Assembly (NCBI GenBank): GCA_051959035.1
Contig: JBQCFN010000148.1
Coordinates: 1 to 27,791 of the forward strand
Direction of reading: 5' to 3'
Length of the DNA stretch: 27,791 nucleotides
DNA from: Lysobacteraceae bacterium
Lineage (GTDB): Bacteria; Pseudomonadota; Gammaproteobacteria; Xanthomonadales; Xanthomonadaceae
In this document: one piece after another, positions 6,501-16,145 of the stretch
Position numbering within the stretch: the first letter of the stretch is position 1
Layout of the letters: the number at the start of each line of letters is the position of its first letter
Position numbers and translations under genes: made by a program
The notes under the pieces: generated by a model
Told to the model about the DNA's origin: nothing
The model's database searches: none
Seen by the model: the letters and a program-made list of their open reading frames with translations, nothing else

Positions 6501-7331
6501 TCAAACGAAGCTGGCGGCGTAACCGGAGCCGACCACCACCTTCTGCACCGCCTCGCTGACCTTGACGTTGCCGGCGATCACCTGCCGGCCGCGCGCGTCG
6601 GCCACGTCGAGCTTGCCCAGCGCGGCGCCGCGGTAGTCGCAGACGCGACCGCCGGCCTCGCGCACCAGCAGCACGCCGGCGGCGATGTCCCAGGGCTGCA
6701 GGCCGGCCTCGAAGTAGGCGTCGGCGCGGCCGCACGCGGTCCAGGCGAGGTCGAGCGCAGCCGATCCGGTGCGGCGCACGTCCTCGGCCTGCGCCAGCAG
6801 CTCGCGCAGGCACTCCAGCTGCTGCGGGGCGCGGGCGCGCTCGCGCGGCGGGAAACCGGTGATCAGCATGGCGCCGGCCAGTTCGGCGCGTTCGCCGATC
6901 CGGATGCGGCGCTCGTTGAGCACCGCGCCGCTGCCGCGGCTGGCGGTGAACAGCTCGTTGCGCAGCGGGTCGAACACCACGCCGTGGATCGGTTCGCCGC
7001 CTTCCAGCAGCGCGATCGACACGCACCAGTGCGGGATGCCGTGCAGGTAGTTGCTGGTGCCGTCCAGCGGGTCGACCACCCAGGTGTAGCGGCTGGCGCC
7101 GCGGTTGCCCTTGCGCGCGCCGCCTTCCTCGCCGAGCACCGCGTACTCGGGGTAGGCCCGGCGCAGTTCCTTGACGATTTCGGTCTCGGCGAGGCCGTCG
7201 ACCTCGCTGGCGTAGTCCATGCGCTGCTTCTCGACCACATTCAGCGCGTCGATGCGGTGCATGTTCCGCAGCAGCACGTTCCCCCCGGCCCGGGCTGCCT
7301 TGACCATGACGTTGACGGCGGGCTTCTGCAT
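6501..7331 (-). CDS. suhB: Inositol monophosphatase family protein SuhB (276 aa)
   Basis: [59 protein letters not shown]. Divergent from trmJ, as in other gammaproteobacteria. Confidence 0.95.
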
Positions 7332-7403
7332 GGCGACGGACCTCGGACGGGCGGCGGGAAGGGCAAGGGAAAAGAGCGCGCCGGCGGCGGGGCCGGGATG
7401 CGC

Positions 7404-7413
7404 AGTTTACCAT
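7404..7413. promoter_or_regulatory. Overlapping divergent -10 elements for suhB (minus: TGG-TAAACT) and trmJ (plus: TACCAT)
   Basis: AGTTTACCAT reads TACCAT on + (7408-7413) and extended -10 TGG-TAAACT on - (7412-7404). It is the main AT-rich patch in the spacer. Confidence 0.6.
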
Positions 7414-7419
7414 TCGCGC

Positions 7420-8196
7420 ATGAGTGCCGATTCCACCTTCCCCACTGCGGCCGCGTCGCGCATTCGCGTGGTGCTGGTCGGCACCCAGCATCCGGGCAAC
7501 ATCGGCTCGGCGGCGCGGGCGATGAAGACGATGGGCCTGTCGCGGCTGGCGCTGGTCGCGCCCGAGCGCTATCCGCACCCCGAGGCGGCGGCGCTGGCCG
7601 CCGGCGCCGACGACGTGCTGGCCGCCGCGACCGTCCACCCGGAGCTGGCGGCGGCGGTCGCCGACTGCCACCTCGTCTATGGCTGCACCGCCCGCAGCCG
7701 GCGCATCGCCCTGGACGAATACGCCCCGCGCGCGGCCGCCATCGGCCTGCGCGATGCCGCGCGCGCCGGTGCCGAGGTGGCGCTGGTGTTCGGCCGCGAG
7801 CGCACCGGCCTCACCAACGAGGAACTGCAGCTGTGCCACGCGGCGGTGCACATCCCCGCCAATCCGGAGTACAGCTCGCTCAACCTCGCCCAGGCGGTGC
7901 AGGTGCTGGCCTACGAGCTGCGCATGGCGATGCTCGGGGCGCCCTCCGCGGTCGTCGAGGGCCACCGCGAGGCGGCGGCGTCGCACGCGCAGCTGGAGAG
8001 TTTCTTCGCCCAGCTGGCCGATACCCTGGACGCGATCGACTTCCACAAGGGCCGAGCCCCGGAGGCGGCGATGCGCAAGCTGCGGCGGATCTTCCTGCGC
8101 GCCGGCATGGACGAGCGCGAGGTGCGCATCCTGCGCGGGGTGCTGGCCGACGCGCAGCGGATGGCGAGGCTGGCCTCGGAGCGGGGCGCCGGATGA
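7420..8196 (+). CDS. trmJ: tRNA (cytidine/uridine-32 2'-O)-methyltransferase TrmJ, SPOUT family (258 aa)
   Basis: IRVVLVGTQHPGNIGSAARAMKTMGL, FGRERTGLTNEEL, IPANPEYSSLNLAQAVQV. Start set at ATG 7420. Confidence 0.93.
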   Translation: MSADSTFPTAAASRIRVVLVGTQHPGNIGSAARAMKTMGLSRLALVAPERYPHPEAAALAAGADDVLAAATVHPELAAAVADCHLVYGCTARSRRIALDEYAPRAAAIGLRDAARAGAEVALVFGRERTGLTNEELQLCHAAVHIPANPEYSSLNLAQAVQVLAYELRMAMLGAPSAVVEGHREAAASHAQLESFFAQLADTLDAIDFHKGRAPEAAMRKLRRIFLRAGMDEREVRILRGVLADAQRMARLASERGAG

Positions 8197-8273
8197 CGGC
8201 CAAGGCGGGCGTGTTCCGCGCCCGCCGCAATTGGGCTAGGCTCGCGGCTGCTTTGCCCCGCCGGACACGCCGC

Positions 8274-9200
8274 GTGCGCCAGCTCCTGACCAGCCTGCTG
8301 TGCGGCCTGCTCGTGCTGAGCGCCGGCGCGGCGCCGGCATCGCCGCCCGCGGGCGGCGACCCACGCGTGCTGGTGCTGGGCGCGATCAGCGACGACCCTG
8401 CCGCCGACTACGGGCGGCTCAAGCCGCTGCTCGATTACGCCGTGGCCCACCTGGCGGGGGTCGGCGTGCGCGAAGGCCGCATCCTGATGGCGCGCGACGT
8501 CCGGCAGATGGCCAGCTACCTGCGGCGCGGCCGGGTCGACTGGGTGACCGGCGGCGCCGCCACCGGCATGCGCCTGCAGGCCCGGGCCGGCGCGCTGCCG
8601 CTGCTGGTGGACGAGCGCAACGGCATGAGCCGCAGCCGTACCCTCGTGTTCGTCCGCCGCGACGCCGGCCTGCGCCGGCTGGAGGACCTGCGCGGGCGCA
8701 GCATCGCGTTCGCCGACGGCGCCTCGGCCGGCGCCTACTACATGTCCGCGCTGCAGCTCCTCGAGCACCACCTGCCGATGCAACTGCTGGCTTCGCCGCT
8801 CGACCGGCCGGGCGGCGACGCGGTCGGCTACCTGTTCGCGCATTCGCAGGCCAACGTCGCCGCCTGGGTGCACCGCGGGCTGGTGGACGCGGGGACCGCC
8901 AGCGACGTCGACTGGGACAACCCGCAGGCGATGCCGCCGGCGCTGCGCGAGGCCTTCGTGGTGGTCGACCGCAGCGAGGACTACCCGCGCGCGCTGGAGG
9001 TGGTGCGCGCCGACCTCGCGCCCGCCGTGCGCGAGCGCCTGCGCGAGGTGCTGCTGCAGGCCGCCGCCGATCCGGAGGCGCGCGAGCCGCTGCTCGAGTT
9101 CGCCGGCACCACCCGCTTCCTGCCGGTCGACGAGGAAGCCGAGGCCGGGCTGCGCCGCCTCGGCGAAGGCGTGGCACGCGTGCGCGCGGAGGTCGAATGA
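8274..9200 (+). CDS. PhnD/PtxB-like (phosphate/phosphite/phosphonate-type) periplasmic substrate-binding protein (about 308 aa, GTG start)
   Basis: Sec-type signal peptide MRQLLTSLLCGLLVLSAGAAPA; LVLGAISDDP, LKPLLDY, LVFVRRDAGLRRLEDLRGRSIAFAD, WVHRGLVDAG, VRADL...RERLREVLL are typical of PhnD-class binding proteins. An alternative ATG at 8193 is possible. Confidence 0.78.
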   Translation: MRQLLTSLLCGLLVLSAGAAPASPPAGGDPRVLVLGAISDDPAADYGRLKPLLDYAVAHLAGVGVREGRILMARDVRQMASYLRRGRVDWVTGGAATGMRLQARAGALPLLVDERNGMSRSRTLVFVRRDAGLRRLEDLRGRSIAFADGASAGAYYMSALQLLEHHLPMQLLASPLDRPGGDAVGYLFAHSQANVAAWVHRGLVDAGTASDVDWDNPQAMPPALREAFVVVDRSEDYPRALEVVRADLAPAVRERLREVLLQAAADPEAREPLLEFAGTTRFLPVDEEAEAGLRRLGEGVARVRAEVE

Positions 9201-11338
9201 AGCGGTTCGCCGGCCTGCGCGGCCTGCAGGCGCGCTTCAGCCTGGTGGTCGCGGCCACCCTGCTGCTGATGCTGGCGATCGTCCTACTGATGCTGCAGCG
9301 GCAGGGCGCGATGCAGCGCGAGGTGCTGGCGCTGGGCCGCCAGGCGATGCACCAGCTGGTGTTCGAGCGCCTGCGCCGCCATGGCGAGGCGCGCGCGGCG
9401 CAGGTGGCCGATGCGCTGGCCAACCCGCTGTACTACTTCGACCTCGACAGCATCGGCACCGTCGCGCGCGACGTCCTGCACGAACCCGGCGTGCGCTACG
9501 TGCTGGTGTTCGACCGCGACGGCGACATTGTCGACGACGCCACCGGCGAGACGCCGGCCTACGGCCAGGCCATGCGCGACCCGCTCGCCTACGAGGCGGT
9601 GGCGGCGCGCGAGGTGCACGTGCAATGGACCGACCACGTGCTCGACGTCTCCAGCCCGATCCACGTCGGCGACCAGCGCCTGGGCGGCGTGCGCATCGGC
9701 TACGGGCTGGACGCGCCACGAACGGAGGAGGCGGCCGCCGTGCGCGCGCTGGACGCGCGGCTGGACCCGCTGGGCCAGCGCCACCTGCTGTGGATCGGGC
9801 TGCTGCTGGCGGCGCTGCTGGCGCTGGGCGCGCTGGCCTGCCTGCTGCTGCAGCGCGCGCTGGTGTGGCCGATCCGCCGGCTCGCGGACGCCGCGCGCGA
9901 GATCGAGGCCGGCAACTTCGCCGCGACGGTGCCCACCAGCCGCCGCAACGACGAACTCGGCGACCTGGTGCGCGCGTTCGGCCGCATGGGCGCGAGCATC
10001 GCCCGCCACGACCGCGACATCCGCCGCATGGCCTACACCGACGCGCTCACCGGCCTCGCCAACCGGCTCGCCTTCCGCGAGAGCCTCGACCAGCGCCTGA
10101 TGCAGCTGCGCGGCGCCGGCCGCCAGCTGGCGCTGCTGTTCTGCGACATCGACGACTTCAAGCGGGTCAACGACACGCTCGGCCACGAGGCCGGCGACGA
10201 GGTGCTGGTGCAGTTCGCCAACCGCATCCGCGCGGCGGTGGCGCAGTACGGCGCCGACGAGAGCCTGATCGCGCGCTTCGGTGGCGACGAGTTCGTGGTC
10301 CTGCTGCAGGCCGGCACCGCGCCCGGCCACGACGCGCGCACGCTGGCGGGCGAACTGGCCGCGACCCTGGTCGACGCGCTTGCGCGCCCGCTGCTGGTGC
10401 AGGGCCGCCAGGTCTTCCTCGGCGTGTCGATCGGCGTGACCCTGTTCCCCGAGGACGCGGCCGGCGGCACCGCGCTGCTGAAGAACGCCGACATCGCGAT
10501 GTACCAGGCCAAGGTCGCGGGCAAGGGTTGCCACCGCTTCTACAGCCGCGCGATGGACCAGGCGGTGGAGCGGCGGGTGCGCATGGAGCAGGACCTGCGC
10601 GGCGCGTGGGAACGCGGCGAGCTGAGCCTCGCCTACCAGCCGGTGTTCCGGTTGTCCGACGGCCAGCTCGCCGGCGCCGAGGCGCTGCTGCGCTGGCGCC
10701 ACCCGGAGCAGGGCGTGATCGCGCCATCGGTGTTCGTCGACGTCGCCGAGCAGAGCGGCCTGATCGAGACGATCGGCCCGCAGGCGCTGCGCGCGGCCTG
10801 CGTGGAGGCGATGGAATGGTACGCGCGGCGCGGGCGCGGCGAGGGCCTGTTCGTGTCGGTCAACGTGTCGCCGCGCCAGCTGCGCAGCGGCACGCTGCCC
10901 GACGAGGTCGCCGCCGCGCTGGCCGACAGCGGCCTGCCCGCCGGCCTGTTGCACCTGGAGCTCACCGAGACCGCGGTGATCGGCGACGAGCAGCACGCCA
11001 GCGCGATGCTGTCGAGGTTGCGCAGCAGCGGCGTGAAGGTGTGGCTGGACGACTTCGGCACCGGCTTCTCCGGCCTGAGCCACCTGCGCCGGGTGCCGGT
11101 GGACGGCGTCAAGATCGACCGCAGCTTCGTCGCCGACGTGCTGCGCGATCCCGACGACCTCGCGCTGACCACCGCGATCATCGCGATGGCGCATTCGCTC
11201 GGCATCACCGTGGTCGCCGAGGGCGTCGAGCAGGAAGGCCAGTACAACATCCTGCGCGAGCGCGGCTGCGACCTCGCCCAGGGCTACTGGCTTGGCCACC
11301 CGCTCGCGCCGGACGATTTCGCCGCGCTGCTTGCCTGA
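9197..11338 (+). CDS. Membrane-bound HAMP-GGDEF-EAL c-di-GMP signalling protein (713 aa)
   Basis: Two TM segments around a periplasmic domain; HAMP (PIRRLADAAREIEAGNF...DELGDLVRAFGRM); DALTGLANR, DIDDFKRVNDTLGHEAGD, RFGGDEF; AEALLRW, DDFGTGFS, KIDRSFV, VAEGVE. ATGA overlap with the binding-protein stop. Confidence 0.95.
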   Translation: MKRFAGLRGLQARFSLVVAATLLLMLAIVLLMLQRQGAMQREVLALGRQAMHQLVFERLRRHGEARAAQVADALANPLYYFDLDSIGTVARDVLHEPGVRYVLVFDRDGDIVDDATGETPAYGQAMRDPLAYEAVAAREVHVQWTDHVLDVSSPIHVGDQRLGGVRIGYGLDAPRTEEAAAVRALDARLDPLGQRHLLWIGLLLAALLALGALACLLLQRALVWPIRRLADAAREIEAGNFAATVPTSRRNDELGDLVRAFGRMGASIARHDRDIRRMAYTDALTGLANRLAFRESLDQRLMQLRGAGRQLALLFCDIDDFKRVNDTLGHEAGDEVLVQFANRIRAAVAQYGADESLIARFGGDEFVVLLQAGTAPGHDARTLAGELAATLVDALARPLLVQGRQVFLGVSIGVTLFPEDAAGGTALLKNADIAMYQAKVAGKGCHRFYSRAMDQAVERRVRMEQDLRGAWERGELSLAYQPVFRLSDGQLAGAEALLRWRHPEQGVIAPSVFVDVAEQSGLIETIGPQALRAACVEAMEWYARRGRGEGLFVSVNVSPRQLRSGTLPDEVAAALADSGLPAGLLHLELTETAVIGDEQHASAMLSRLRSSGVKVWLDDFGTGFSGLSHLRRVPVDGVKIDRSFVADVLRDPDDLALTTAIIAMAHSLGITVVAEGVEQEGQYNILRERGCDLAQGYWLGHPLAPDDFAALLA

Positions 11339-11341
11339 CCG

Positions 11342-11950
11342 CTAGGCCAGCGCGTGCAGCCACGCAGTGGCGCGCGCGAGCAGGTTGCCCGACAGCAACC
11401 CGGCGCTGGCCACCGCGGCGGCGCCGGCGATCCAGCCCGCCAGCAACAGCGCGCCGTCGCGTTCCAGCAGGGCGAGCGCGAACACCAGCAGCAATCCGCC
11501 GAACAGGTAGTTGGTGAGCGGGATCGGCAGCGACAGCAGCAGGCCGATCAGCACCAGCAGCAGGCCGCTCACCATCGCCGCGGCGCGGTAATGCAGCACC
11601 TGCGGCAGGCGCGGCCGGACCACCGTCTCCAACCAGCCGAGCGGGCGCTCGGCCTTGCGCGCGAAGCGCGCCAGCGCGCCGCGGTGCGGGCCGCGCCGCG
11701 CCAGCGCGCGCGGCAACCAGGGTTCGCGCCGCCCCGCCAGCAACTGCAGGCCGACCAGCACCGCCAGCGGCCCGCCGATCGCGCCGCCGCCCGGGATGGG
11801 GATGAAGGCGGGCAGGGCGGCGATCAGCAGCAGCATGCCGAACGCGCGCCGGCCGAGCCCGGCGAGCATGCCGGACAGCGGGAGGATCTCGTCGGGATCG
11901 CCTTCCGCGAATGCGCGCAGCAACGCGCGGATGCCCGCCTCAGCCGCCAT
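11342..11950 (-). CDS. exoD: ExoD-family (exopolysaccharide synthesis ExoD) membrane protein (202 aa)
   Basis: LGRRAFGMLLLIAALPAFIPIPGG, LQLLAGRREPWLPR, LERPLGWLE..VRPR, LLSLPIPLTNYL, LALLERDG match my recollection of the ExoD pattern. Start ATG 11950 overlaps the hlyC stop. Confidence 0.82.
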   Translation of the reverse strand: MAAEAGIRALLRAFAEGDPDEILPLSGMLAGLGRRAFGMLLLIAALPAFIPIPGGGAIGGPLAVLVGLQLLAGRREPWLPRALARRGPHRGALARFARKAERPLGWLETVVRPRLPQVLHYRAAAMVSGLLLVLIGLLLSLPIPLTNYLFGGLLLVFALALLERDGALLLAGWIAGAAAVASAGLLSGNLLARATAWLHALA

Positions 11951-15262: not shown

Positions 15263-15673
15263 TCAGAGCAGGTCGCCGCCCGCCGACAGGGCCCGCTCCA
15301 TGCGGTCGCCCATGCCGCCGATCTCGAGGATGAGGCGGTCGACTTCGGCCGCCGTCAGCCCGGTGTACGGACGGTTTTCGACCAGCTGCAGGTAGGGCAC
15401 GCCGTCGAGGTCGCCGATCGACAGGTAACCCACCCGGCTTTCCCAGTTGAAGGCGAGCGCGCGCCGGCAGTCGATGCCGGTGGTCGGCGCGACCGCGGTG
15501 CTCACGCGCAGGTAGCAGCGCTGGTCGTCGTCCTGCAGCTCGGACAGGAAGATCGCCTGGTGCCGGCTGCCGTTCTCGAGCGAGAGCTCCACGCACAGCA
15601 CGTACGGCTCCTGCATGGTCACGTGGAAGCCGCTGGCGGCGAGGTGGCTGCGGATCTGCTCGAAGTTCTGCAT
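15263..15673 (-). CDS. Hypothetical protein (136 aa), possibly YbjN/type III chaperone-like fold
   Basis: Normal amino-acid composition, unlike the Arg/Ala/Pro-rich shadow ORFs; fills the gap between pit and the ATL gene; -10-like TAGCAT upstream. The fold call is pattern-based only. Confidence 0.75.
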   Translation of the reverse strand: MQNFEQIRSHLAASGFHVTMQEPYVLCVELSLENGSRHQAIFLSELQDDDQRCYLRVSTAVAPTTGIDCRRALAFNWESRVGYLSIGDLDGVPYLQLVENRPYTGLTAAEVDRLILEIGGMGDRMERALSAGGDLL

Positions 15674-15700
15674 GGTGGCGGCGCGGCGCGGGGGAGCCGC

Positions 15701-15707
15701 TATGCTA
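15701..15707. promoter_or_regulatory. Shared divergent -10 heptamer TATGCTA (plus TATGCT for the ATL gene; minus TAGCAT for the hypothetical gene)
   Basis: Both strands give TANNNT hexamers within a 39-nt divergent spacer. Confidence 0.55.
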
Positions 15708-15712
15708 CCCCG

Positions 15713-16060
15713 ATGAAGGCCCGGGCTCCGCAGCAAGCCACCGCCGAGCAGCGCATCCTGGCCGCCGTGCGCGCGATCCCGCGTGGCCAGGTCGCCGGCT
15801 ATGGAGAGGTCGCGCGGCGCGCGGGCCTGCCGGGCCGTGCCCGCCTCGCCGCGCGCGTGCTCAGCGGCAACGCCGACCCGACCCTGCCCTGGCACCGCGT
15901 GCTGCGCTCGGACGGCCGGATCGCCTTCCCGCCCGGCTCGGAGGGCTTCCGCGAGCAGTCGCGGCGGCTGCAGGCCGAAGGCGTGGTGGTGGCGAATGGA
16001 CGGGTGCGCGTCGCGCGGCAGGCGCCCGACCTCGACGCGGCGCTGTGGGGCATGGGCTGA
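15713..16060 (+). CDS. atl: Alkyltransferase-like (ATL/YbaZ) MGMT-family DNA base-flipping protein (115 aa)
   Basis: IPRGQVAGYGEVA, GRARL, and PWHRV in place of catalytic PCHRV (the Trp defines non-catalytic ATL proteins), followed by SDGRI. Confidence 0.9.
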   Translation: MKARAPQQATAEQRILAAVRAIPRGQVAGYGEVARRAGLPGRARLAARVLSGNADPTLPWHRVLRSDGRIAFPPGSEGFREQSRRLQAEGVVVANGRVRVARQAPDLDAALWGMG

Positions 16061-16145
16061 GCCAGCGCGGGCCGGGGCACGCATGCGCGGGCGTTGACCA
16101 CGCTGCCGGTATCATGGCGGACCGTTTTGCCACAGCCGCCCGCCG

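Follow-up and report, generated by a model that had tools for sequence, protein, structure and literature searches.

A periplasmic binding protein and its GGDEF-EAL partner in a Lysobacteraceae genome: a very probable ortholog of Xanthomonas citri XAC2383-XAC2382 with a lineage-specific ligand pocket

What does a secreted binding protein do when its gene overlaps that of a signalling enzyme and no transporter genes lie nearby? A gene pair in a 27,791-nucleotide stretch of DNA from a Lysobacteraceae bacterium (contig JBQCFN010000148.1 of assembly GCA_051959035.1; 72% G+C) poses this question; the whole of that stretch is called the window below. The first gene (8274..9200, + strand; GTG start; 308 amino acids) encodes a PhnD-like periplasmic binding protein (SBP) of family PF12974. 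The second (9197..11338, + strand; 713 amino acids) encodes a membrane enzyme of cyclic di-GMP (c-di-GMP) metabolism, also called the sensor here, in which two transmembrane segments (TM1 and TM2) enclose a single-Cache domain (sCache) and are followed by HAMP, GGDEF and EAL domains. The two genes share the tetranucleotide ATGA (9197..9200, +): the ATG of the enzyme gene occupies 9197-9199, and the TGA of the SBP gene 9198-9200. None of the genes annotated in the window encodes a permease or an ATPase of the ATP-binding cassette (ABC) type. A first-pass annotation, made from the letters alone, had described this anatomy, including the intact catalytic motifs and the sequence ADES at the place of an inhibitory RxxD site, and all of it was confirmed. 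We consider it very probable that the pair is the Lysobacteraceae ortholog of the XAC2383-XAC2382 system of Xanthomonas citri, the secreted SBP docking on the Cache domain of the enzyme and not serving a transporter.

The case for this assignment begins with the SBP. The protein matches Pfam PF12974 (Phosphonate-bd) with an E-value of 1.7e-39; a hydrophobic, signal-like helix spans residues 2-17, and the folded domain begins at about residue 30. In a sequence search of solved structures, the top match was the set of PDB entries 5UB3, 5UB4, 5UB6 and 5UB7 (E 9e-77, residues 32-308). The entry titles name XAC2383 from Xanthomonas citri, with chloride ion and with ATP, and a published table likewise lists 5ub3 as XAC2383 of that species and as a member of PF12974. 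An AlphaFold2 (AF2) model of the window SBP had a predicted local distance difference test (pLDDT) value of 91 and, when compared with 5ub3 in Foldseek, gave a TMt of 0.93, a root-mean-square deviation of 1.8 Å and 48% identity. After XAC2383, the fold matches were ArrX and then PtxB; AioX ranked lower.

Gene order points the same way. A complete 5.2-Mb Xanthomonas-like genome in our set (L090, from G129) carries an SBP in which three 29-residue peptides taken from 5ub3 recur with 27, 25 and 26 matching positions. Its sensor is 64% identical to the window enzyme over residues 9-713, and its pair stands in the order suhB/trmJ-SBP-sensor. In the window, the gene directly upstream of the SBP gene is a trmJ-like SpoU methylase gene (7219..8196, +), which together with the divergent suhB gene (6501..7331, -) anchors the conserved position of the pair. 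Because L090 has the same order, XAC2383-like peptides and a similar sensor, XAC2383-XAC2382 is, as judged from these comparisons, the positional ortholog of the window pair.

Is the pairing peculiar to this genome? It is not. Among 150 Lysobacteraceae genomes from 64 genera, 125 genomes in 56 genera have an SBP ortholog (45-76% identity), each as one full-length copy, and wherever both genes lie on one contig, an ortholog of the enzyme's N-terminal 275 residues follows directly downstream on the same strand. The genes trmJ, SBP and sensor were consecutive in 80 of 80 named loci, whose genera include Luteimonas, Cognatiluteimonas, Lysobacter, Pseudoxanthomonas, Thermomonas, Vulcaniibacterium and Noviluteimonas. 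A four-nucleotide overlap of start and stop codons was found in 65 of 75 orthologous loci, and gaps of at most 38 nucleotides separate the genes in the remainder. The pairing of SBP and sensor is far above chance. The belief of the first-pass annotation that similar pairs occur in other Xanthomonadales was well founded. Seen from the enzyme's side, all 120 of the best homologs of its N-terminal region are HAMP-GGDEF-EAL proteins of about 710 amino acids.

The hydrophobic segments of the enzyme lie at approximately residues 14-34 and 197-218, and the periplasmic single-Cache (PDC-like) domain, the presumed docking site for the SBP, comprises residues 36-198 (9302..9790, +). Pfam places sCache_3_2 on residues 73-170, with a score (28.8 bits) barely over the cut-off. 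A sequence search of solved structures with the N-terminal 275 residues returned weak HAMP matches only. The AF2 model of the periplasmic domain (pLDDT 77) consists of a long helix and then an alpha/beta core, and the best solved folds in a fold search were the sensor domains of CitA, WalK and DcuS; as modelled, the periplasmic part is a single Cache/PDC fold. In the cytoplasmic portion, Pfam identifies a HAMP domain (residues 220-268; 9854..10000, +) and a GGDEF domain (residues 279-443; 10031..10525, +) whose eponymous motif lies at residues 362-366 (10280..10294, +). The EAL domain (residues 465-702; 10589..11302, +) has all of its catalytic and metal residues.

The motifs DIDDFKRVND, GGDEF, EAL, NVS, ELTE, DDFGTG, KIDRSF, EGVE and QG are all present in the window enzyme. 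Of 89 orthologs, 88 retain GGDEF, and nearly all have the DxDxFKxxND segment; EAL is found in 84, the other five, Xanthomonas-like copies among them, having EVL. The motifs NxS, ELTE, DDFGTG, KID, EGVE and QG are conserved across the 89. The position of the RxxD inhibitory site (I-site) reads ADES in the window enzyme (residues 353-356; 10253..10264, +), and none of the 89 orthologs has R..D there. Both catalytic domains look competent, and freedom from I-site feedback is a family-wide trait.

How, then, might the two proteins work together? We propose that the SBP feeds no transporter and would instead dock on the single-Cache domain of the membrane enzyme encoded downstream. TM2 and HAMP would then relay the ligand state of the SBP to the GGDEF domain, and perhaps also to EAL, so that the output of c-di-GMP changes; the ATGA overlap would keep both proteins co-expressed. 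The window pair itself displays the orthology, the architecture, the intact catalytic motifs and the strict co-location, and a PhnE-type permease was not found in its genome. By analogy with the ortholog, the SBP would physically bind the Cache domain; the sign of the regulation would follow in the same way, the SBP being reported to restrain the cyclase in X. citri. A predicted complex of the mature SBP (residues 27-308) and the Cache domain (residues 36-198), each supplied with an alignment, scored 0.11 against a mark of 0.32, in a calculation that included no controls, and this value speaks neither way on binding.

The X. citri system has reportedly been taken much further. XAC2383 and XAC2382 are said to be co-transcribed, their mutants to have opposing motility phenotypes, and XAC2383 to bind XAC2382 at its periplasmic Cache domain. 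A preference for negatively charged, phosphate-containing ligands reportedly emerged from the crystal structures, and the authors are said to have proposed that XAC2383, when liganded, acts as an inhibitor of the cyclase. The title of the paper on XAC2383-XAC2382 describes a diguanylate cyclase (Teixeira et al. 2018, J Biol Chem 293:10767).

That designation bears on what the window enzyme does. It could be mainly a phosphodiesterase, or, as the first-pass annotation had proposed, a true bifunctional switch in which the SBP toggles between EAL and GGDEF activity rather than simply restraining a cyclase. Such an enzyme would comport with the EAL domain, whose catalytic and metal residues are intact in the window and retained in 84-88 of the 89 orthologs. 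It would also comport with the best NCBIfam similarities, which are to phosphodiesterases such as DibA (all under the cut-off), and with the precedent of NspS/MbaA, where an SBP controls a GGDEF-EAL enzyme. However, the GGDEF active site is equally conserved, and the ortholog was published under the title of a diguanylate cyclase; we regard a phosphodiesterase or a switch as somewhat unlikely.

Does the window SBP recognize the same kind of ligand as XAC2383? To compare the proteins, we defined a near-invariant column as one conserved in at least 90% of 84 orthologs. The window SBP deviates at 26 of 135 such columns, the window sensor at 9 of 307, and its Cache domain at 2 of 34. Pairwise identities show the same imbalance: whenever a member of the window's sub-clade is in the pair, the SBPs are 10-13 points less identical than sensor identity would predict. 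At 75-80% sensor identity, for example, SBP identity is 63% in pairs with the sub-clade vs. 76% otherwise. Sixteen of the 26 deviant positions are common to relatives at 74-84% identity (P0004, P0006, which is locus L003, and P0007). Because these close relatives share most of the substitutions, the changes are, on this comparison, a retained state of the sub-clade and not noise.

Ligand contacts were mapped through a HMMER alignment to the PtxB structure 5o2j, not through a complex of XAC2383. In PtxB, a conserved STS-H motif is formed by S124, T125, S126 and H155, and the hinge tyrosine Y94 hydrogen-bonds the oxyanion (PMC5700983). The positions of S124-T125-S126 correspond to window residues 151-153 (8724..8732, +), which are S-A-G; the family has S-T-S here (at least 96% of orthologs), as does L090. 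At the position of Y94, window residue 121 (8634..8636, +), the family has Tyr (93% of orthologs), L090 Phe and the window Ser. H155 aligns with window residue 192, which is Gln in the window, Glu in the family and Lys in L090. A further change in the window SBP is that of Gln147 to Ala. Tyr121 and S-T-S are retained jointly in 79 of 85 orthologs. Thus, as judged by alignment, the residues of a phosphate-accepting pocket are not conserved in the window SBP.

The first-pass annotation had called this protein a sensor of the phosphate/phosphonate class. For the window copy, that label finds no support: besides the S-A-G and Ser121 substitutions, the SBP scores 51.2 bits against a cut-off of 261.1 for the PhnD equivalog TIGR03431, and 55.3 bits against 112 for TIGR01098. 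Since the oxyanion-contact residues have changed, a phosphate-class ligand should not be transferred to the window copy. Its ligand is probably not a phosphate-type anion like those of the XAC2383 crystals, or else ligand binding has been lost.

The SBP of L090 is itself atypical. It deviates at 19 near-invariant columns and has Phe and Lys at the positions of Tyr121 and Glu192, respectively. Because L090 belongs to the characterised Xanthomonas lineage, the ligand preference of XAC2383 may not represent the family.

A second, unrelated lineage has changed its SBP to a similar extent, by what looks like an independent route. The protein of Cognatiluteimonas telluris (locus L051, 6001-6921) also deviates at 26 near-invariant columns; about 12 of these deviations coincide with the window's mapped positions, mostly with other residues, and the congeners of this species keep the consensus. 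That two lineages have changed jointly at shared positions suggests that the residues concerned work as a unit, for which the ligand pocket would be the simplest interpretation. The Xanthomonas lineage diverges as well, at other and fewer positions (F121 and K192).

In other relatives, the SBP gene is missing altogether. In four genomes that are 99-100% complete (L086 in G023, L087 in G048, L088 in G060 and L089 in G063), trmJ and the sensor gene are immediate neighbours, separated by gaps of approximately 160-430 bp. No SBP gene lies between trmJ and the sensor in these loci, and no match was found elsewhere in the genomes at E 1e-10. The sensor of L088 has GGGEF and DDFGAG motifs and the most diverged N-terminus of the four SBP-less sensors; this single case is consistent with relaxed constraint after loss of the partner.

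What could account for both the altered pockets and the lost genes? One reading, which we hold to be somewhat less likely than not, is that the pocket has been re-tuned at least twice at about a dozen shared positions, once in the window's sub-clade and once in Cognatiluteimonas telluris, while the sensor and its coupling stayed fixed. The family would then show, in nature, how ligand specificity can be switched repeatedly while the signalling chassis stays the same. The window copy would sense something other than the phosphate-type anions seen with XAC2383, and this plasticity, carried to its end, would explain why four genomes have lost the SBP. Another explanation, which we judge unlikely, is that the SBP of the window lineage is ligand-blind: its pocket would have decayed, so that the protein would now serve the enzyme only as a constitutive structural partner, or as a brake, or would be nearing loss. 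The 26 changed columns of 135 (among them S-T-S to S-A-G, Tyr121 to Ser, Gln147 to Ala and Glu192 to Gln) would be expected from such decay, as would the shortfall in SBP identity and the outright loss of the gene in four relatives. On the other hand, the 16 positions shared with relatives at 74-84% identity suggest that a new state has been retained and that decay is not in progress; the reading frame is intact, the fold is modelled with high confidence and the ATGA coupling has been kept. The approximately 12 positions changed in Cognatiluteimonas telluris, mostly to other residues, fit re-tuning of the pocket equally well as decay.

Three points weigh against applying the X. citri model to the window pair in full. 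As the four relatives without an SBP demonstrate, the sensor is not strictly dependent on this partner. Control by ligand may not apply to the window SBP, most of the conserved ligand contacts being gone. Finally, given the intact EAL domain, the net activity of the enzyme, cyclase or phosphodiesterase, is not readable from its sequence.

The role in transport can be dealt with more briefly. The SBP gene is the sole PF12974 gene in the window's genome, a 2.17-Mb metagenome-assembled genome (MAG) that is 78% complete. A search for PhnE, with none run for PhnC on its own, reached at best 30 bits in this MAG (cut-off 217) and 55 bits in five complete single-contig relatives carrying the SBP ortholog. 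Although members of PF12974 are mostly transport SBPs and a transporter could be missing from the incomplete MAG, it is highly improbable that this SBP serves a phosphonate- or phosphite-type ABC importer encoded elsewhere, its adjacency to the GGDEF-EAL gene being incidental: no PhnE surpassed the cut-off in the five complete relatives, the protein falls far under the PhnD and PhnD-subfamily cut-offs, adjacency to the sensor and the four-nucleotide overlap are conserved across 56 genera, and two signalling SBPs, ArrX and AioX, are among its closest relatives of solved structure after XAC2383.

The genomic surroundings were also considered. Ahead of the pair, the window contains genes for an Lrp-family regulator, queA, tgt, yajC, secD, secF, suhB (-) and trmJ. 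After it come ExoD (-), CNNM/CorC (-), PhoU_div, Pit, an open reading frame (ORF) with no family, rhomboid, GNAT, CDF and RlmJ; further on lie Ppx, Ppk, PhoR, PhoB, an M48 peptidase and CMD. The position after trmJ and the neighbouring Pit, PhoBR and Ppk/Ppx genes noted in the first-pass annotation are indeed there. From this neighbourhood, one could propose that the pair responds to a phosphate signal, but we rejected that idea: the block secF-suhB-trmJ-SBP-sensor-exoD-corC-phoU_div-pit is conserved family synteny, and the window SBP lacks the phosphate-binding residues. Within 6-kb flanks, exoD and corC occur in 58-59 of the 80 loci, and phoU_div and pit in 45-50. Since the Pit neighbourhood is conserved as synteny, it is no evidence of functional coupling. 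A scan of 7900-11700 for promoters and terminators yielded no sites and is uninformative at 72% G+C.

Two features of the neighbourhood deserve mention in their own right. The segment 13448-15234 (+) encodes PhoU_div (DUF47) and then a PHO4/Pit phosphate transporter, which is the usual pairing of Pit with its accessory protein. Between the Pit and rhomboid genes lies a 273-amino-acid ORF (15263-16084, -) that has a strong coding-type bias in third-position G+C (GC3 bias 0.88) and no Pfam family.

How much of this is new? The core idea of the first-pass annotation, a transport-independent PF12974 SBP coupled to a HAMP-GGDEF-EAL enzyme, agrees with an ortholog that has been studied by experiment, and the mechanism it guessed is in essence the model published for that ortholog. 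Its expectation that function and ligand would be the novelty does not hold: the function and the interaction of XAC2383-XAC2382 have been published, along with crystal structures that contain ligand (PDB entries 5UB3-5UB7). The system is already known. As a discovery, the window pair carries little weight, the system, its architecture, the role of the SBP, the crystal structures and the wide distribution having been published in 2018. The only new element is the lineage-specific remodelling of the SBP pocket, read from alignments, and it is modest. Two practical consequences remain. The automatic annotation name that public sources give to named members of the ortholog group is corrected, and, given that the pocket differs between lineages, the ligand assignment made in X. 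citri should not be carried over to the family at large. The pair is also easily rediscovered, because two recent reviews, one on SBP signalling (PMC8050422) and one on sensory input to c-di-GMP enzymes (PMC8846402), omit XAC2383-XAC2382; according to the latter, SBP_bac_3 is the only PBP-clan domain studied in c-di-GMP networks.

The comparison with known systems places the window pair closest to XAC2383-XAC2382. The two share the SBP family (48-52% identity and the fold match described above), a TM-Cache-TM-HAMP-GGDEF-EAL partner, the order after suhB/trmJ, coupling of the overlap type and the bacterial family. They differ in the 26 near-invariant positions at which the window SBP departs from the family consensus, and in the S-T-S loop, which is retained in XAC2383 but not in the window SBP. 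At residue 192, the window SBP has Gln and XAC2383 has Lys, whereas most orthologs have Glu, and the window enzyme has EAL where the Xanthomonas copies have EVL. Given the differences in the pocket, the ligand likely differs as well.

Transport SBPs such as PhnD, PtxB and HtxB belong to the same Pfam family and have the same fold. In contrast to them, the window SBP has no PhnCE partner that we could find (PhnE having been searched), and it lacks both the STS-H motif and the ligand tyrosines. NspS/MbaA of Vibrio cholerae and ScrB/ScrC of V. parahaemolyticus resemble the window pair in that an orphan periplasmic SBP adjoins and controls a membrane GGDEF-EAL enzyme. Their SBPs, however, belong to PF13416 and PF00497, their sensor domains are dCache-like, and their ligands are polyamines or the S-signal. 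The window pair has neither a PotD-like (PF13416) SBP nor a dCache-like domain, but PF12974 and a single Cache. The comparison with NspS/MbaA made in the first-pass annotation is valid as an analogy of design, and not as homology of the input module.

The input module itself also occurs outside the family. Homologous pairs with various output modules reportedly occur in several phyla, and in our class-wide gammaproteobacterial sample, strong SBP matches outside the family were found in 3 of approximately 247 genomes. Right after each of these three SBP genes comes a gene whose product has a homologous N-terminal module; two of the outputs are GGDEF-EAL, and one is HisKA-HATPase, for which Pfam shows the HAMP domain. 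In this last case, a gammaproteobacterium of 35% G+C (L099, G299:C2, 4119-6745), a PF12974 SBP with 30% identity overlaps the start of a HAMP-HisKA-HATPase kinase whose N-terminus is 25% identical to that of the window enzyme. From these similarities, L099 combines the same input module with a kinase as its output, and it parallels AioX/AioS. In AioX/AioS and ArrX/ArrS, too, a PF12974 SBP signals through a sensor protein without transport, and AioS has an sCache-like periplasmic domain. These systems differ from the window pair in their low identity (about 20%) and in their output, which is a histidine kinase with a response regulator and not a GGDEF-EAL enzyme; AioX binds arsenite, and ArrX binds arsenate. 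The true nearest relatives of the window pair are XAC2383-XAC2382, which is orthologous, and AioX/AioS and ArrX/ArrS, which share its SBP family and deliver their signal to a kinase.

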